The position numbers were made by a program, and so were the translations under genes. DNA of 10,766 bases, from the UHGV virus genome UHGV-0121619. One strand, given 5' to 3'. Below are positions 3,180 through 10,766 of the stretch, in pieces. Source of the DNA: a virus. The notes under the pieces were generated by a model. It saw only the letters and a list, made by a program, of their open reading frames with translations. It made no database searches and was not told where the DNA came from. How positions within the stretch are numbered: position 1 is the stretch's first letter; every line of letters starts with the position of its first letter.

Positions 3180-3753
3180 CTCATGGTGGCAGGAACTAAT
3201 GCATTTTTTCCTGCAAGGAATGACACTTAAACAGTTGATTCATATGCTAATCATCCTGATCATATTGATTATTGTTATGCCGGTAAGCGTAAAAGAATGG
3301 ATAAACCTGCATAATCCAGAAATCCTTCCTCATTATTGGATGTATTACATCCTGTTGTTCTGCGTTAGCTATGTGCTTAACGGTGTTGTTAATTCCGCTT
3401 ATCACGCTGTGACTGAAAGAATTGAGGTATCCGCTGCTCAGAAGCGCAAATCTAAAGAAGAAAAATATGTGCAAGATTTGTTTGATTCGTTAACTCTTGG
3501 AGAAAGAGCGTATTTGGCATTCGCTGTAGCCGCGAATAACCAGCTAAAGACAGAAAAGGGAAGCCCCGAAGCAATCTCATTGCTCGAAAAAGGGCTTCTT
3601 ATTCGGATACCTTCTGCTACTGGATATCCTGAAATCGACCGTTTTGTTATCCCGGAACGCTATAGAAATGAGTGCTACATTAGGTTTGCTGGGAAGAAAG
3701 ACAGTCTTATGGATGAACTTATCGCTCAGGATAAGCATGGCAAAAACAAGTAA
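3172..3753 (+). CDS. sieB: SieB-like superinfection exclusion membrane protein
   Basis: 193-aa ORF with two N-terminal hydrophobic helices (LIHMLIILIILIIVMPVSV, HYWMYYILLFCVSYVLNGVV); convergent and adjacent to N as sieB is in lambda/P22. Family call from architecture and position, not alignment. Confidence 0.6.
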   Translation: MNNSWWQELMHFFLQGMTLKQLIHMLIILIILIIVMPVSVKEWINLHNPEILPHYWMYYILLFCVSYVLNGVVNSAYHAVTERIEVSAAQKRKSKEEKYVQDLFDSLTLGERAYLAFAVAANNQLKTEKGSPEAISLLEKGLLIRIPSATGYPEIDRFVIPERYRNECYIRFAGKKDSLMDELIAQDKHGKNK

Positions 3754-3769
3754 TTAGCAAATGATTTTA

Positions 3770-4078
3770 TCATCTCGCCGTCAGTTGTTTTGATTTCCGG
3801 TAGCCTGCCGCGTAAATGGCTACGTTTGGCAGGCAAATACTTCCACTGCATTCATCTGCCTTCTTGCAGCGAAGGCTTCCGAGTGATATTGCTTTTTCAG
3901 AAAGGCTTAAACGCTTTCTTGGGGCTTCCTGAACAGGTTCCTCACTGTCTGTGCCGAAGATAGAATCAATGATGTTGCAGATGGCATCACGCTCGATAGC
4001 CAGCTTTCTGCGCCGCTCATGACGGCGAGTTTTGGCATTTCCTGCAAATGTTGATTTCCCGTACACGATTACCGTCAT
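3770..4078 (-). CDS. N: antitermination protein N, P22 gene 24 type
   Basis: 102 aa from ATG 4076-4078 (MTVIVYGKSTFAGNAKTRRHERRRKLAIERD...), Arg-rich motif near N-terminus as in P22 gp24; AGGA RBS upstream; ORF track start at 4162 is an upstream in-frame Met. Confidence 0.85.
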   Translation of the reverse strand: MTVIVYGKSTFAGNAKTRRHERRRKLAIERDAICNIIDSIFGTDSEEPVQEAPRKRLSLSEKAISLGSLRCKKADECSGSICLPNVAIYAAGYRKSKQLTAR

Positions 4079-4197
4079 GATGTTTTCCTCATGTGAAATG
4101 GCTTTGGTGGTGATGCGCCAGATGCTGATCTTCTGGTTGCTGTCGTTGCAGCTGCAATTCACATCACCGCCAAACCCATCTCGTTTGGTATCTGTTT

Positions 4198-4232
4198 GCG
4201 CTTTGTCAGCGCCCCATCGAAGTTAAAGAGCC
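4198..4232 (-). promoter_or_regulatory. nutL (boxA + boxB), P22-type
   Basis: Minus strand reads GCTCTTTAA (boxA-like, 4223-4232) - 9 nt - GCGCTGACAAAGCGC (boxB hairpin, 4198-4212), between pL and N. Confidence 0.7.
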
Positions 4233-4269
4233 TGCCAATCTGTTCCGTTTGGCTACCAGCGTCCTGCTG

Positions 4270-4340
4270 ATGTGTTTAGTATCACCGCTAGTGGTATGCG
4301 TGTCAACACCGCCAGAGATAATTTATCACCGCAGATGGTT
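4270..4340 (-). promoter_or_regulatory. OL1-OL2-OL3 operators with pL promoter (lambda-type)
   Basis: TATCACCGCTAGTGGTA (4280-4296), CAACACCGCCAGAGATA (4304-4320), TATCACCGCAGATGGTT (4324-4340); on minus strand -35 TTGACA (4301-4306) and -10 GATACT (4278-4283), 17-bp spacer. Confidence 0.85.
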
Positions 4341-4482
4341 ATATGTATGTTTTTTATATAGATTTATTTTTTGCCGGGGTGTGTTGCTGTGGTGGTGTGA
4401 TCGAGAGATCAGAATTGCGATGTTTAGTGAGTTGTATCTATTTATTTTTCAATAAATACAATTGGTTAATGTGTTTTTAGGT

Positions 4483-4494
4483 GGGGGGGGGGGG
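4483..4494. repeat. homopolymeric G12 tract
   Basis: Twelve consecutive G at 4483-4494, directly visible; non-coding spacer between OL3 and the bidirectional terminator. Confidence 0.9.
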
Positions 4495-4512
4495 ATCGAG
4501 AGGCAAAGAAAA

Positions 4513-4540
4513 CCCGGCGCTGAGGCCGGGTGGGGTTTTG
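4513..4540. terminator. bidirectional intrinsic terminator ending the cI operon (tIMM-like)
   Basis: Stem CCCGGC (4513-4518) / loop GCTGAG / GCCGGG (4525-4530); plus strand followed by TGGGGTTTTGTT, minus strand followed by GTTTTCTTTGCC; begins 11 nt after the stop of the 56-aa gene. Confidence 0.65.
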
Positions 4541-4711
4541 TTATTGGTGCATTTGGCAGAGTGTAGTATCAGGTCCATAAGCCAAAGTAAAAACAGGCTT
4601 GTTGATCAATCCGTTGTTCTTTAATGATTGAATCATTTTACCTTGCTCGCTAACTTTTTGCTTGCTAAGTATTTCTGCCACTTGCTGTGTCAGTGATTTG
4701 TCTTTGCTCAT
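4541..4711 (-). CDS. hypothetical 56-aa protein, translationally coupled to upstream peptidase-like gene
   Basis: ATG 4709-4711 immediately follows peptidase stop TAA 4712-4714 (TAAATG); translation MSKDKSLTQQVAEILSKQKVSEQGKMIQSLKNNGLINKPVFTLAYGPDTTLCQMHQ; stop 4541-4543; not in ORF track (below size cutoff). Confidence 0.5.
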   Translation of the reverse strand: MSKDKSLTQQVAEILSKQKVSEQGKMIQSLKNNGLINKPVFTLAYGPDTTLCQMHQ

Positions 4712-5614
4712 TTATGACTCACTTTGTTCTGAGAATGGGAATGAAGACAGAACAAGAACCTGTCGATTTGTCTTATACATGTATTCATTAATGACGTTGT
4801 GCAGATTTTTTAACGCCATGCTAAAATCTTTGTCGTATGTAAAGTCTTCTACTTTAATTCTTAAGTCATTGATAAGAGTATTTATTCCTATCGTTCTTCC
4901 GTGAGAATGCCACTTTCCGTTGTCACTAAGAGCGGTAGCGATCATTTTAGCTCTCGCTTCTTTTTCCCTCTTGGAAACTAGCTTTCCTCGTTTTGTGTTA
5001 CCTTGATGAACCGTCCACTCTCTGAATTTATACTCTACAAGCCACTTCTTAAGCAAGTCTATTGATAGCTCTCTGGCTTGCTCGTATCTCCTTAAGTGCG
5101 CAAGATCTAACTGACTAAGCATCATTAGTTCAGCTTGGGTAATGGTTCCTTCTCTGGATTTAGTAATCATTTCTTCAACTTTATCAAGGTATCCCAAAGC
5201 AGGAACCCATTTACCGTCAGAGGATTGCACTTGAGGGTCAATGGGGCCTAATGAAGAAGCATAGTTCATGTAAATTTTATCTCCAGACATACACCATATT
5301 GTGCCTGCCGACATGGCCATATCTGGAATGATAAAATATACCTCTTGATAGAAATGCCTTGTAATTTCTACCATTTTTTCCACAGACTCAACAGAGCCAC
5401 CATTTGTATTGAGTATAATAACTAGAAATCTATTGGTACGACTGTTAGCCATCTCCCCAATAGCCTCAAGTTTTGGTTGGTAAACTTCTTTTGACCATGG
5501 AAAGATACCACCGTAGTACGCTATGACGTCGCAGCTTGGGAAAAAGTTATTTTTAAATTGCTCTAACTGCCAAGAAATGTATGTTTCTAGTGTTGAATCA
5601 AGATTTTGGCTCAT
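4712..5614 (-). CDS. ClpP/S49-fold serine peptidase-like protein in the rexAB position (candidate exclusion/defence gene)
   Basis: 300-aa ORF; block LVIILNTNGGSVESVEKMVEITRHF...YFIIPDMAMSAGTIWCMSGDKIYMNYASSLGPIDPQV resembles the GG...(A)ASGG nucleophile region of SppA/ClpP-fold peptidases (putative Ser102 in AMSAG); lies directly downstream of cI on the same strand. Confidence 0.75.
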   Translation of the reverse strand: MSQNLDSTLETYISWQLEQFKNNFFPSCDVIAYYGGIFPWSKEVYQPKLEAIGEMANSRTNRFLVIILNTNGGSVESVEKMVEITRHFYQEVYFIIPDMAMSAGTIWCMSGDKIYMNYASSLGPIDPQVQSSDGKWVPALGYLDKVEEMITKSREGTITQAELMMLSQLDLAHLRRYEQARELSIDLLKKWLVEYKFREWTVHQGNTKRGKLVSKREKEARAKMIATALSDNGKWHSHGRTIGINTLINDLRIKVEDFTYDKDFSMALKNLHNVINEYMYKTNRQVLVLSSFPFSEQSES

Positions 5615-5686
5615 GTGATACCTTGCTATATCAACAATTTACAATAACATGTTGCACTATCGGTTTTTTATTAATCACAATTGGAA

Positions 5687-6403
<717 letters not shown>

Positions 6404-6410
6404 TTAAATC

Positions 6411-6476
6411 TATCACCGCAAGGGATAAATATCTAACACCGTGCGTGTTGACTATTTTACCTCTAGCGGTGATAAT
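6411..6476. promoter_or_regulatory. OR3-OR2-OR1 operators with divergent pRM and pR (lambda-type)
   Basis: TATCACCGCAAGGGATA (6411-6427), TAACACCGTGCGTGTTG (6434-6450), TACCTCTAGCGGTGATA (6458-6474); pR -35 TTGACT (6448-6453) and -10 GATAAT (6471-6476); pRM TAGATA/TAGATT on minus strand. Confidence 0.9.
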
Positions 6477-6500
6477 GATTGCATGTACTAAGGAGGTTGT

Positions 6501-6701
6501 ATGGAACAACGCATAACCCTGAAAGATTATGCAATGCGCTTTGGTCAAACCAAGACGGCTAAAGATCTCGGCGTATATCAAAGCGCGATCAACAAGGCCA
6601 TTCATGCAGGCCGAAATATTTTTTTAACTATAAACGCTGATGGAAGCGTTTATGCGGAAGAAATAAAGCCCTTCCCAAGCAACAAAAAAACAACTGCATA
6701 A
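6501..6701 (+). CDS. cro: Cro repressor, lambda type
   Basis: 66-aa [41 protein letters not shown]... recalled as near-identical to lambda Cro; GGAGG RBS upstream. Confidence 0.95.
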
Positions 6702-6707
6702 GTAACA

Positions 6708-6742
6708 CCGCTCTTTATCAATCTGCACCGCCGACAACGCGG
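6708..6742 (+). promoter_or_regulatory. nutR (boxA + boxB), P22-type
   Basis: CGCTCTTTA (6708-6716) - 9 nt - ACCGCCGACAACGCGGT (6726-6742, 5-bp stem hairpin) immediately downstream of cro. Confidence 0.7.
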
Positions 6743-6754
6743 TAACTAATTAAG

Positions 6755-6772
6755 CACTCATCGAAAGATGAG
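6755..6772 (+). terminator. hairpin in the tR1 position (candidate terminator/pause structure)
   Basis: ACTCATC-GAAA-GATGAGT perfect 7-bp stem with GNRA-like loop between nutR and cII; no clean U-tract follows, so intrinsic termination is uncertain. Confidence 0.3.
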
Positions 6773-6807
6773 TATTAGTGATTATTTACCTATGGAAATA
6801 GTAAGAA

Positions 6808-7104
6808 ATGGAACAAACAAGTTACAGCAAACTATCACAGCGCGACGTTGATCGCGCAGAAACAGATTTACTCATCAACCTGTCAACGCTTACCCAGCGC
6901 GGTTTGGCAAAGATGATTGGCTGTCATGAATCGAAGATAAGCAGAACGGACTGGAGATTTATTGCTTCGGTCTTGTGTGCTTTCGGAATGGCATCAGACA
7001 TCAGTCCGATTAGCAGGGCTTTTAAGTATGCGCTTGATGGACTCACCAATAAAAAACGCCCGGCGGCAACCGAGCGTTCTGATCAAATACAAATGGAATT
7101 TTAA
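6808..7104 (+). CDS. cII: CII-like transcriptional activator (mosaic: divergent N-terminal part, lambda-like C-terminus)
   Basis: 98-aa ORF; C-terminal ...LTNKKRPAATERSDQIQMEF matches recalled lambda CII C-terminus; N-terminal two thirds differ from lambda CII. Confidence 0.8.
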   Translation: MEQTSYSKLSQRDVDRAETDLLINLSTLTQRGLAKMIGCHESKISRTDWRFIASVLCAFGMASDISPISRAFKYALDGLTNKKRPAATERSDQIQMEF

Positions 7105-7116
7105 CAACATCCAGCG
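7048..7116 (-). ncRNA. oop: oop antisense RNA (lambda-like), overlapping 3' end of cII
   Basis: Minus strand ...TGATCAGAACGCTCGGTTGCCGCCGGGCGTTTTTTATT matches recalled 3' half of lambda oop RNA including terminator and U-tract; candidate pO -10 TATAAT on minus strand at 7122-7127. The 5' end is approximate. Confidence 0.55.
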
Positions 7117-7126
7117 AGGTAATTAT

Positions 7127-7399
7127 ATGCGAAACAAAGGCTTTAATCCACCTGATACACACAAAGAAGTTAAGCGTTTGCGCTTCCTTCGTTCCATTGA
7201 TGAAAGAACTCAAATCTCTTTTGTGAAAGTTGCCAGAACTGAGCTTCTGAAGGCTGAGGCGAGGGCGTTGCTACCGTCTATACCAAAAGAGGAGGGATAT
7301 ACGTTCATTCCAAACGCATTTCTGGAAAAGCTGCTCAAAGAAGACATATCCGTAAGTCAGTTTAACGATGTTCTTAAGGTCTTTCGTCAAGGCAGGTAG
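7127..7399 (+). CDS. hypothetical 90-aa protein between cII and the replication initiator
   Basis: ATG 7127-7129 with GAGG upstream (MRNKGFNPPDTHKEVKRLRFLRSIDERTQISFVKVARTELLKAEARALL...); the ORF-track 145-aa version extends upstream into cII in another frame and is unlikely. Confidence 0.55.
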   Translation: MRNKGFNPPDTHKEVKRLRFLRSIDERTQISFVKVARTELLKAEARALLPSIPKEEGYTFIPNAFLEKLLKEDISVSQFNDVLKVFRQGR

Positions 7400-7401
7400 T
7401 T

Positions 7402-8349
7402 ATGAGCAATACAGCAAAAATCTACGATTTCAGCGCCGCACACGAGCGCAGGAGCAACAGGATGGAGAACCAGAAAACTGGTTACATTCCGTTGTACCGG
7501 AGCATTCTGAAACAGTCATGGGCGAAAGATGTTTATCTTCGCACCCTGTGGGAAAACCTTCTCCTGAATGCCGCCAGAAAGCCATACAAAGCGAATTTCA
7601 AAGGTCATGAATGGCATCTGCAACCCGGTCAACTGGTTGTGACAGCAGCTGATTTAGGTCTTCAGTTATGCGACAGGCATGGCAAGCCGGCAAGCCGTGA
7701 TCAGGTTGAGCGGATGCTTCAGGTTTTTGTGAAAGAGGGGATGATCTCCATTGATGGAGAGAAGCAAAAAGGTCGTGTGATAACCATCACAAATTACCAT
7801 GAATATGCTCAAAAAATGGACAATTTACCCGCACATGAAGCCGCACAAACAACCGCACATGATGCCGCACATGACGAAGCCAGTAATGGCGCGGCTTTCA
7901 GAGTACATGCCGCACATGAAAGCGCACATGAAGCCGCACAAACAACCGCACATCATGAACAAGAAGGTATTAACAAGAATATAAATAATGCCCCCCTACC
8001 CCCCAATGGGGGCGGCGATGGGCAGGTTAAACCTGAACGTCGCAAGGCAGAACGAATCGACTACGAATCCTTCCTGAACGCCTACAACACCGAAGTCGGT
8101 GACAGACTGCCACACGCTGTTGCGGTCAACGAGAAACGCAAACGCCGCCTGAAGAAAATCATCCCGCAACTGAAAACGCCAAACGTGGACGGTTTCAGAG
8201 CGTATGTCAGGGCGTTTGTGCATCAGGCAAAGCCGTTTTACTTCGGAGACAACGACACGGGCTGGACGGCAGATTTTGATTACCTGCTGAGGGAAGATTC
8301 GTTAACGGGAGTTCGGGAAGGGAAGTTTGCAGACAGGGGGATTGCATGA
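7402..8349 (+). CDS. replication initiator (lambda O / P22 gp18-like) with internal origin
   Basis: 315-aa ORF; N-terminus [10 protein letters not shown] resembles lambda O MTNTAKILNF; contains tandem iterons, AT-rich tract and Pro/Gly linker mid-gene; stop overlaps helicase start (ATGA at 8346-8349). Confidence 0.8.
7829..7957. repeat. origin-like iteron array: two clusters of four tandem 12-bp repeats (CCGCACATGAnG / CCGCACAAACAA)
   Basis: Units at 7829, 7841, 7853, 7865 and at 7910, 7922, 7934, 7946; followed by AT-rich 7958-7990 and C6-TA-C6-AAT-G5 hairpin-prone segment 7991-8013. Confidence 0.75.
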
Positions 8350-9722
8350 GACAGGATATCGAAGCGAGCGTTATCGGTGGCCTGCTGATTGGTGGATTAA
8401 CACCGACTGCCAGTGACGTTCTGGCAACGCTTGAGCCGGAAGCGTTTTCAATTCCGCTCTACCGGAAAGCCTTCGAGGTTATCCGCAAGCAGGCGAGGAA
8501 CAGAAACCTAATCGACGCGCTGATGGTTGCCGAGGCGTGCGGAGAGGAGCATTTCACGTCAATCCTGATGACCAGTAAGAACTGCCCGAGTGCCGCAAAC
8601 CTGAAGGGATATGCCGGAATGGTCGCGGATAACTATCACCGCCGTCTGGTGCTGGAAATCATGGATGAAATGCGTGAACCAATTCAGAGCGGAACCATCG
8701 ATACATCGAGTCAGGCGATGGACGAGCTTGTAAAGCGTCTCTCAGCCATCAGAAAGCCCCGTGACGAGGTTAAACCTGTACGGTTAGGGGAAATCATCAC
8801 TGACTACACTGACACGCTTGACAGGCGTCTGAGGAACGGAGAAGAGTCAGATACCCTGAAGACCGGAATCGAAGAACTTGATGCCATCACCGGAGGGATG
8901 AACGCAGAAGACCTGGTGATAATCGCTGCTCGTCCTGGTATGGGGAAAACCGAACTGGCGCTGAAGATTGCCGAAGGCGTTGCAAGCCGCGTTATTCCTG
9001 GTTCTGACGTCCGGCGCGGGGTATTGATTTTCTCAATGGAAATGAGCGCATTGCAGATTGCAGAGCGAAGCATCGCCAACGCCGGGAGGATGTCGGTTAG
9101 CGTGCTGCGAAATCCTGCATCGATGGATGACGAAGGCTGGGCGCGTGTTGCTAACGGCATGAGTCAGCTTGCAGATTTGGATGTATGGGTAGTCGATGCC
9201 TCGCGGTTATCGGTCGAAGAAATACGCTCAATCGCAGAACGGCACAAACAGGAAAATCCAAACCTCTCACTCATCATGGCGGATTATCTTGGCCTGATTG
9301 AGAAGCCGAAAGCAGACCGCAACGACCTCGCAATTGCTCACATCTCCGGAAGCCTGAAGGCGATGGCGAAAGACCTGAAAACGCCTGTTATCTCCCTGAG
9401 TCAGCTTTCGCGCGATGTTGAGAAGCGACCAAACAAACGCCCGACAAACGCAGATTTGCGTGATTCAGGAAGCATTGAACAGGACGCAGACTCAATCATC
9501 ATGCTCTATCGGGAAGCGGTATATGACGAGAACAGTAGCGCCGCACCATTTGCTGAAATCATTGTGACAAAAAACCGTTTTGGCTCGCTTGGTACGGTTT
9601 ACCAGCGGTTCTGCAACGGACACTTTGTTGCATGTGACCAGGATGAAGCCAGACAGATTTGCACAGCATCAAATGCGCCCGCTGCGCGTGGCAGACGATA
9701 TGCACAAGGGGCTGACGTATGA
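8346..9722 (+). CDS. DnaB-like replicative helicase (P22 gene 12 type)
   Basis: 458-aa ORF; Walker [13 protein letters not shown], DnaB-like N-terminal domain and C-terminal RecA-like core ([12 protein letters not shown]..., [11 protein letters not shown]). Confidence 0.9.
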
Positions 9723-9748
9723 CCATCTACGTCACTGAGCTAATAACA

Positions 9749-9780
9749 GGCCTGCTGGTAATCGCAGGCCTTTTTATTTG
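9749..9780 (+). terminator. intrinsic terminator after helicase gene (tR2-like)
   Basis: 8-bp stem AGGCCTGC (9749-9756) / loop TGGTAATC / GCAGGCCT (9765-9772) followed by TTTTTATTT. Confidence 0.7.
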
Positions 9781-9794
9781 GGGGAGAGTAAATC

Positions 9795-10001
9795 GTGGCT
9801 GAGTTGATTTTCTCTGCATTGAGGATTCTCGGTGCTATGTGGATGGTGGCGACGTTCATTGTGGTTGCCAGCAGTTTTGTCCGGTTGGTAGGCGAAGGTA
9901 AAGACCTGGTTGGTGTGCTTTTCGGTAGCATTTTCCTGTGGGTGATTATCGGTGTTATGCCTGTCGCTGTAGCAAAAATGGCGTGGCGTTTTGTGAGTTA
10001 A
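9795..10001 (+). CDS. hypothetical small membrane protein (68 aa, two predicted TM helices)
   Basis: GTG start 9795 with GGGAGAG RBS about 7 nt upstream; MAELIFSALRILGAMWMVATFIVVASSFVRLVGEGKDLVGVLFGSIFLWVIIGVMPVAVAKMAWRFVS is strongly hydrophobic. Confidence 0.5.
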   Translation: MAELIFSALRILGAMWMVATFIVVASSFVRLVGEGKDLVGVLFGSIFLWVIIGVMPVAVAKMAWRFVS

Positions 10002-10013
10002 TCGGAGGTTAAT

Positions 10014-10436
10014 GTGAGCAAGTGCCAAAAGTGCAATAACACAGGAATGTGTGATAGCGGAGGTTCTACTCCTTGGGGAGAGCCGATTTTTATTGAATGT
10101 GACTGCCTTATGAAAGATGACGAAAGCAGATGCCAGTTTGAAGAGAGTTGGTTACGACGTGGGGGCGAATCTTCAGACCTTATCCGTTACCCTGAAAATC
10201 ACCATGAAATTGGCAGTGGTGATATTGGTGGTCAATACGTGATGGACGATGTTCAAGGCCACTGGCAAACGTGGCAGGCATCGCGAGCAGCTATTGAAAT
10301 AACCGCGCCAAAGTTTATCGACAGCAGAGAAGCATTAGCCAAAGGGTTTACTGTTGATTATTCCAATGGCTTCGGTGATGCAATGGATGCTTATGAGGAA
10401 AACATCCGCGCCGCTGGAGTCAAAGTGAAGGAGTGA
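10014..10436 (+). CDS. hypothetical protein with N-terminal Cys-rich (CxxC...CxC) putative zinc-ribbon
   Basis: 140-aa ORF, GTG start 10014 with GGAGGT RBS upstream; MSKCQKCNNTGMCDSGG...IECDC; stop is 2 nt before ninB-like start. Confidence 0.55.
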   Translation: MSKCQKCNNTGMCDSGGSTPWGEPIFIECDCLMKDDESRCQFEESWLRRGGESSDLIRYPENHHEIGSGDIGGQYVMDDVQGHWQTWQASRAAIEITAPKFIDSREALAKGFTVDYSNGFGDAMDAYEENIRAAGVKVKE

Positions 10437-10438
10437 CG

Positions 10439-10766
10439 ATGAAGCAAACAATCTTCCTCCGAAGTAAGCAACAACAGCAAGCCGCAATAAATGCCATCCT
10501 CGCAACACCACTCGATAAAGACAAGCCAGTCACCATCCGCATTACTGACTACAAGCGCAACCTTGACCAGAACGCAAAATTTCACGTGATGCTGGCGGAT
10601 ATCGCTCGTCAGGTTCAATGGTGCGGCAAATGGTTAAAACCAGAACAATGGAAGGTTTTGTTGATTAGCGGTCATGCAGTGGCGACAAAGCAGGAAGCTG
10701 ATGTTTTGCCCGGGCTTGAAGGCGAATACGTCAACATTCGCGAAAGCAGCGCGCAGATGAGCGTGA
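10439..10766 (+). CDS. ninB: NinB-like recombination protein, N-terminal portion (continues beyond window)
   Basis: ATG 10439; MKQTIFLRSKQQQQAAINAILATPLDKDKPVTIRITDYKRNLDQNAKFHVMLADIARQVQWCGKWLKPEQWK resembles recalled lambda NinB (LDQNRK..., RQVEWHGRWL...ESWK); no stop in window. Confidence 0.7.
   Translation, partial: MKQTIFLRSKQQQQAAINAILATPLDKDKPVTIRITDYKRNLDQNAKFHVMLADIARQVQWCGKWLKPEQWKVLLISGHAVATKQEADVLPGLEGEYVNIRESSAQMSV

Follow-up and report, generated by a model that had tools for sequence, protein, structure and literature searches.

A probable lambda-type spacer between OL3 and the end of the cI operon, with a conserved core and a G-run of variable length

The interval at 4340-4540 of the DNA analysed here (UHGV virus genome UHGV-0121619, 10,766 nucleotides in its whole length, hereafter the window) is probably the lambda-type spacer that extends from OL3 to the end of the cI operon, composed of DNA upstream of pL, a filler, a mosaic core, a G-run drifting neutrally in length and the terminator Timm. 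By BLAST, window 4301-4531 aligns to lambda 35612-35825 with 87% identity (31311 being the offset from window to lambda coordinates), and the identity of the segment to lambda 35612-35825, HK542, mEp234 and HK97 ranges from 87 to 89%, with further matches in HK244, HK106, mEp332, CL707 and many Stx phages. In the lambda annotation, 35612-35825 is the spacer between OL3 and the rexB stop codon. An earlier sequence-only reading took the interval for non-coding DNA placed between OL3 and the terminator of the operon, and this is supported. As a feature, the OL-Timm spacer is already known, together with its terminator and the DNA upstream of pL, and the window is recognisable from its sequence as a lambda-immunity prophage in which the rexAB slot is filled by a different cassette. 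The features of the region are as follows:

4280-4296, 4304-4320 and 4324-4340: operators OL1, OL2 and OL3, lying with pL (sequence; lambda and HK542 annotation).
4306-4301 and 4283-4278, minus strand: -35 (TTGACA) and -10 (GATACT) hexamers of pL (sequence; promoter scan).
4341-4372: AT-rich DNA upstream of pL, TATATGTATGTTTTTTATATAGATTTATTTTTT, homologous to lambda 35652-35683.
4373-4407: variable G/T-rich filler, GCCGGGGTGTGTTGCTGTGGTGGTGTGATCGAGAG, with indels and substitutions in an alignment of 51 unique spacers.
4403-4482: conserved AT-rich core, GAGAGATCAGAATTGCG...GTGTTTTTAGGT, common to lambdoid phages of several immunity types.
4483-4494: G12 homopolymer, C12 on the cI-operon strand (sequence).
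4503-4531, minus strand: terminator Timm, with the hairpin at 4512/4513-4530/4531 and the U-tract at 4511-4503, UUUUCUUUGC.
4532-4543, plus strand: cassette-specific junction, GGGGTTTTGTTA.
4541-5614, minus strand: cassette in the rexAB position, comprising a 56-aa ORF (4541-4711) and a 300-aa protease (4712-5614).
5687-6400, minus strand: cI, 237 aa, upstream of the protease cassette in the operon.

The promoter PWM scan placed pL and pR as the two top-ranked sites of the whole window (scores 13.2-13.5), which served as a positive control, and homology to lambda 35582 puts the pL start at about 4271. The spacer alignment resolves five zones, which are, from left to right, the immunity-specific operator and AT-rich DNA, the G/T filler, the core, the G-run with (GATC)G(A/T)GAGG, and the A-tract with the hairpin, the last being the invariant zone. 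Compared with the OL-rexB intergenic region of lambda (35652-35824), the spacer of the window likewise lies between OL3 and the stop codon with which the last cI-operon gene ends, its A/U tract and hairpin CCCGGCGCTGAGGCCGGG are identical (the hairpin corresponding to lambda 35807-35824), and the segment upstream of pL, with 3 substitutions between 4341-4372 and lambda 35652-35683, and the core match within the overall identity of 87%. The two regions differ in that lambda carries G5 followed by C instead of G12, in the filler left of the core, which is different and longer in the window, and in having GGTGAGAG on the left and GATCGTGAG on the right where the window has GATCGAGAG on both sides, the filler at 4373-4407 terminating in copy 1 of that motif (4399-4407). 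Lambda furthermore has rexAB downstream instead of the protease and the 56-aa ORF, so that the sequence after the hairpin differs. Wild phages of lambda immunity (HK542, HK244, mEp234, HK106, mEp332, CL707 and HK544; EF120455-EF120461) are annotated with the same architecture, consisting of pL, OL1-3, a conserved spacer, Timm, a variable cassette replacing rexAB, and cI. HK542 shares GATCGAGAG at the left and a G-run followed by GATCG at the right, but its G-run does not exceed G5, and the phages of EF120455-EF120461 are without the protease cassette of the window (the best phage record covers at most 41% of window 3700-6500). Three Dam (GATC) sites are found in the spacer (4399-4402, 4407-4410 and 4494-4497), two of them at the core's left edge with a distance of 8 bp, and the third abutting the G-run, whereas lambda has one at each place.

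The hairpin and U-tract can be assigned to Timm, the candidate terminator of the operon formed by cI and the cassette. The hairpin comprises 7 pairs, 6 of them G-C, and is labelled Timm in EF120458 and EF120460, as the terminator of the pRM, pRE and pLit transcripts. Timm has been described as an intrinsic terminator directly after rexB, and lambda 35799-35824 has been used as 'timm' (PMC3349717). On the minus strand the hairpin ACCCGGCCTCAGCGCCGGGT is followed by TTTCTTTGCC, as found by the terminator scan, with a fold of -14.2 kcal/mol (z = -2.45), and the stop codon of the 56-aa ORF (4541-4543) lies 10 nt from the hairpin. The sequence-only reading had placed T-runs on both sides of the hairpin. 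The two are unequal: the minus strand has a proper U-tract (GGGTTTTCTTTG), and on the plus strand the hairpin is followed by GGGGTTTTGT, in which GGGG precedes TTTTG. The plus-strand run is derived from the cassette: the junction at 4532-4543 supplies both the weak T-run and the TAA stop of the 56-aa ORF on the minus strand. The same junction occurs wherever this cassette is found, behind several immunity types, and other cassettes bring other sequence. Bidirectional termination, which had been proposed as a property of the element, is thus not upheld, since the plus-strand T-run changes with the cassette; as far as the sequences indicate, it is a by-product of the end of this particular cassette and lies outside the conserved module.

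Across the sampled loci, at least 28 different cassettes fill the rexAB slot. In the window, the 300-aa protein belongs to the SDH/ClpP-like serine proteases (PF01972; Pfam, RefSeq names), and PADLOC gave no match for either cassette protein. The protease cassette with its GGGGTTTTG junction stands behind at least six repressor types, and the pair of protease and 56-aa ORF is indexed in 1311 blocks of an assembly collection. It is possible that this pair constitutes an uncharacterised exclusion or defence cassette.

To follow the spacer beyond the window, viral, metagenome and genome collections were scanned by pattern for relatives, and E. coli genomes supplied others. The core, which spans GAGAGATC to just before the G-run (about 80 bp), was present in 55 unique versions in 173 loci and in about 1210-1290 of the 5426 complete E. 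coli genomes. Together with Timm, it is joined in 173-177 sampled loci to about 6 operator types on the left (crude clustering gave 17, a number inflated by register shifts, and about 6 was taken) and to about 28 classes of cassette ends on the right, with the right-hand joint falling exactly after CCGGG, the 3' edge of the hairpin. In one spacer (L233), a lambda-like left part is followed by a right part resembling that of Stx phages, which places a crossover inside the core. The terminator alone does not explain the conservation of an 80-bp core across immunity types, and we infer a role in providing homology for recombination. Core and Timm offer a dependable landmark of where pL control ends on its right side and where the variable rexAB slot begins on its left. 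An AT palindrome within the core, TATTTATT-TTTC-AATAAATA (4439-4458), was examined as a possible hairpin under conservation or a site for a protein; as a structure it was dropped, since its arms change without compensation in the core alignment. Core-less variants also exist (L188 at 9200-9340, L196, L204, L220 and L224), in which T-rich DNA upstream of pL is joined straight to the A-tract of Timm (...TATATTTTGGAAAAAGAAAACCCGG); their genes otherwise follow the normal order, and one of them is located on a 43.9-kb viral contig with the usual order of N, operators, Timm, cassette and repressor. Other operator-Timm spacers unlike the core were grouped as altA (L183, L185, L187) and altB (L186, L197, L199, L200), and are G/T-rich on the plus strand.

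The G12 tract is the sole G/C homopolymer of at least 7 or A/T homopolymer of at least 8 across the 10.7-kb window. The G12 that the earlier reading placed at 4483-4494 is confirmed and is far beyond chance, and relatives carry a G-run of 2-10 at the same site. Its last G (4494) is also the first base of the second copy of GATCGAGAG (4494-4502) and of a Dam site. We measured the longest G-run in the 45 nt left of the hairpin in 221 hairpin-bearing loci, the window included. In the 220 relatives, the lengths were 2 (8 loci), 3 (59), 4 (65), 5 (69), 6 (10), 7 (7) and 8 (2), and length 12 was found in the window alone among the sampled loci. A single haplotype shows GGGGGC (G5C), G6, G7 and G8 while being otherwise unchanged. 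The prophage of E. coli EC416 differs from window 3851-7560 (3710 bp) by 2 mismatches and one 5-nt gap, the latter reflecting G7 versus G12, and a G10 is found in E. coli SY3626, where the haplotype is HK542-like and the cassette is another one, which marks it as an independent expansion. The predicted variability in length, for which a comparison across related prophages had been suggested, was therefore observed, with runs of 2-8 and 10 and with G7 on a near-identical background. Left of the core, a second G-run (4376-4379) is G4 here, G6 in lambda (about 35,683) and 3-9 in relatives (e.g. L068 and L233). As regards the loci themselves, the G10 of SY3626_hybrid (NZ_CP059283; L238 2540-2549) is at the homologous site, and EC416 (L004, NZ_AP027404) is 99.8% identical over 3.7 kb (3851-7560), with a collapse of similarity left of 3851 that marks a mosaic boundary inside or beside the N region.

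Based on these comparisons, we propose the following scheme as probable for the region, in which (i) Timm would end the pRM and pRE transcripts after the last gene of the operon; (ii) core and Timm form a fixed and already known joint of the mosaic, to which operators of different immunity are joined on the left and unrelated cassettes on the right, with crossovers falling inside the core; and (iii) the G-run would be a hotspot of replication slippage whose length drifts and which has expanded to 12 in the window. Most likely the drift reflects neutral slippage at a site that tolerates it, where we infer both the neutrality and the mechanism. We read the length as unconstrained because the tract lies past the Timm U-tract, 14 nt beyond its end, is far from the pL start (about 210-220 bp upstream), is touched in the ORF list by non-conserved mechanical ORFs only and by no conserved one, and is bracketed by no -35/-10 pair in either the promoter consensus scan or the PWM scan. 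No element with a known dependence on spacing includes it. It would, however, appear as C12 in any RNA reading through Timm, so that tract length may still tune read-through, as the sequence-only reading suggested; the neutrality proposed here is a reading of position only. As it stands, the region is of little significance, being a textbook lambda immunity region in which G12 is another allele of a polymorphic homopolymer. The G-run is nevertheless a handy, fast-evolving marker for tracing closely related prophages.

Several other explanations were weighed against this reading. An error of sequencing or assembly that turned a shorter run, e.g. G7, into G12 appears quite improbable: homopolymers are error-prone, no second sampled locus has 12 and the nearest relative has G7, but further traces of homopolymer error were not seen, with cI (237 aa) and the protease (300 aa) both of full length, the protease sequence turns up unchanged in many other assemblies, a graded series from 5 to 8 exists, and the independent G10 comes from a hybrid assembly. 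We assign a very small probability to a contingency switch in which changes in G-run length would set an adjacent gene or promoter to its on or off state. The tract has the length needed for high mutability, its length is polymorphic on near-identical backgrounds and a second variable G-run flanks the core, so that the region resembles the contingency loci of Neisseria, Haemophilus and Campylobacter, in which a long G/C homopolymer differs in length among close relatives. However, the tract is neither in a conserved ORF nor between -35 and -10 hexamers, lies downstream of the U-tract of the terminator and has no gene evidently coupled to its length, and the runs of 4-5 that are modal in the relatives are too short for frequent switching.

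The sequence-only reading had further described imperfect direct repeats flanking a 170-bp AT-rich segment, and had considered them a possible insertion footprint. Repeats are indeed present, as exact copies of GATCGAGAG at 4399-4407 and 4494-4502 that extend to an imperfect 17-mer (4391-4407 versus 4486-4502; 82% identity, spacing 95), but the flanked core measures about 86 bp and not 170 bp. The idea that they are target-site duplications left by a small mobile element, with the AT-rich core as the insert, is almost certainly wrong, despite an exact 9-mer on both sides of the segment and the existence of loci without the core. An exact non-homopolymer direct repeat of at least 9 nt arises in 17-20% of dinucleotide shuffles of 4340-4540 (201 bp), which is within chance, and the two copies vary independently in relatives, as in lambda with its two different versions or in L016, which has GATCGAGAG on the left but G7 followed by TGAGG on the right. 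Terminal inverted repeats are absent from 4250-4650, where the sole inverted repeat consists of the A/T flanks of the terminator, and core-less loci miss the entire stretch from the T-tract to AAAG and not a unit bounded by the repeats. Each fetched core copy lies directly left of the Timm hairpin, which also speaks against insertion but is inherent in the way the loci were collected. The footprint of a MITE or other insertion was accordingly rejected on the repeat statistics, the absent inverted repeats and the end points of the core-less loci. The GATCGAGAG repeat would then be a coincidence of alleles. An ancient tandem duplication of a unit made up of AT-tract, G-rich stretch and GATCGAGAG was also considered and set aside, since the half-versus-half local alignment score of the spacer was reached by 51 of 500 shuffles for the window and 63 of 500 for lambda (10-13%).

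A rightward small RNA ending at the terminator had been suggested as well, and we regard it as highly unlikely. Its promoter would be the plus-strand pair TTGTAT (4432-4437) and TACAAT (4457-4462), and an RNA of about 65-75 nt would begin close to 4469, span the G-run and end at the hairpin, which would here be read in the opposite sense. Both hexamers fall in the most invariant blocks of the core, the pair has a PWM score of 8.7, which ranks 31st in the window, and in this cassette the hairpin is followed by GGGGUUUUGUUAUU, with a plus-strand fold of -23.3 kcal/mol. On the other hand, this best plus-strand promoter candidate is weak, with a 19-bp spacer, and was not called by the consensus scan. 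Rfam gave no match at any threshold, neither for the whole window at the gathering score nor for 4200-4750 at E up to 10, where eukaryotic snoRNA noise with E above 2 was all that appeared. There is no conserved 3' end, because the plus-strand sequence after the hairpin varies with the cassette and is U-rich in only some; for most cassettes the U-run is absent or poor. Moreover, the putative RNA body would coincide with the most variable part of the element (G-run and indels), and the literature searched yielded no transcript of this kind in lambda. The suggestion of a small RNA is consequently not sustained. Known prophage small RNAs were also considered as counterparts and discarded, as both the Pas sRNAs and the anti-sRNAs AgvB and AsxR map to the late (Q/PR') region.

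The base composition of the spacer is a property for which the preferred reading of a lambda-type spacer with a neutral G-run gives no account. Minus-strand RNA of 4341-4511 (171 nt) would contain 67 A, 52 C, 11 G and 41 U, i.e. 6.4% G, with 31 YC dimers. The C/G ratio lies between 2.4 and 4.5 in all 35 unique spacers examined. Two spacer families without similarity to the core have skews of +0.49 and +0.59, with a background 99th percentile of 0.50, and the three non-homologous spacer families in all range from +0.49 to +0.59, at about the 99th percentile of the background. Transcription-associated mutation bias is expected to give a skew of the opposite direction. So marked an excess of C over G suggests that something outside the best explanation is under selection. 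By the 78-nt criterion of Nadiras et al., positions 4258-4641 of the minus strand form a C>G bubble that covers 5504 %·bp and whose peak, at 35.9%, is higher than any other in the window. In that work, every tested template whose bubble exceeded 78 bp in length or 700 %·bp in area gave Rho-dependent termination in vitro. The primary-binding-site consensus of Rho favours A and C. The largest C>G bubble of the window by area is located elsewhere, at 9679-10475 on the minus strand (8959 %·bp), mostly opposite long plus-strand ORFs.

One can imagine, on this basis, that the spacer acts as a Rho-dependent back-up zone, in which Rho would load on Timm read-through RNA and halt it before OL and pL, keeping N and kil free of read-through in the lysogen. 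The C-run arising from the G-tract would serve Rho as an especially good ligand, and its expansion could tighten the insulation. This is possible, if rather unlikely. The read-through RNA would be untranslated, A/C-rich, G-poor and rich in YC dimers, as the consensus of Rho would favour, the bubble exceeds the values of Nadiras et al., and the skew is common to three non-homologous families and opposite in direction to that expected from mutation bias. The likeness to rut regions and C>G bubbles lies in an untranslated, C-rich, G-poor and YC-rich stretch of more than 78 nt on the transcribed strand; the difference is that the stretch considered here is known from sequence and is placed behind an efficient-looking intrinsic terminator, so that only read-through RNA would contain it. 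Against such a role, E. coli abounds in C>G bubbles, with about 2.2 per kb, many more than there are real terminators (Nadiras et al.), the AT hairpin gives the RNA some structure, and the papers found contain no experimental support for read-through or Rho action at this site. A zone of this kind would also be dispensable, because core-less variants exist in apparently complete 43-kb phage contigs, and a long C-run would not be required, because tract lengths of 2-5 are the norm. The more specific proposal that the OL-Timm spacer was selected as a Rho-loading insulator backing up Timm and shielding the pL/N operon, which CI represses, from the constitutive transcription of repressor and cassette, with the slippage-prone C-run as its heritable and adjustable part, seems unlikely to us, even though it would explain the extreme C>G asymmetry common to three unrelated spacers. 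If it were true, the insulator would add a second, factor-dependent layer silencing N and kil while cI and the passenger genes are transcribed, and the compositional asymmetry is the sole part of the region that might repay experiment.

At the left end of the spacer, we take the lambda IHF site and the pL2 promoter to lie in the AT-rich stretch homologous to 4341-4372. The IHF consensus WATCAANNNNTTR had 0 matches at up to one mismatch in 4340-4540, a search to be read with the caveat that real sites often deviate more. An UP element proximal to OL stimulates pL and, via CI looping, PRM (PMC3708714). The AT-rich left end lies where this element near OL has been reported, and a UP or IHF function may be presumed from the homology to lambda. 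The G/T-rich filler prompted a search for Chi, of which the window contains no exact copy; the count of one-mismatch copies equals the expectation, and a Chi-like sequence in the filler was dropped because that count was no higher than expected.

Finally, all 15 matches on genome contigs (L098-L112; one genome per species) carry the exact lambda allele, and 14 of them are in unrelated taxa, among them Shewanella canadensis (a contig of 48,542 bp), Paenibacillus, Kitasatospora, Desulfovibrio and Capnocytophaga, the remaining one being Citrobacter youngae. The lambda allele in the assemblies of unrelated taxa looks like contamination with lambda DNA, and these contigs contributed no diversity to the comparison. 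'Campylobacter phage CJLB-4' (MW057783) matches in the same way as lambda itself.
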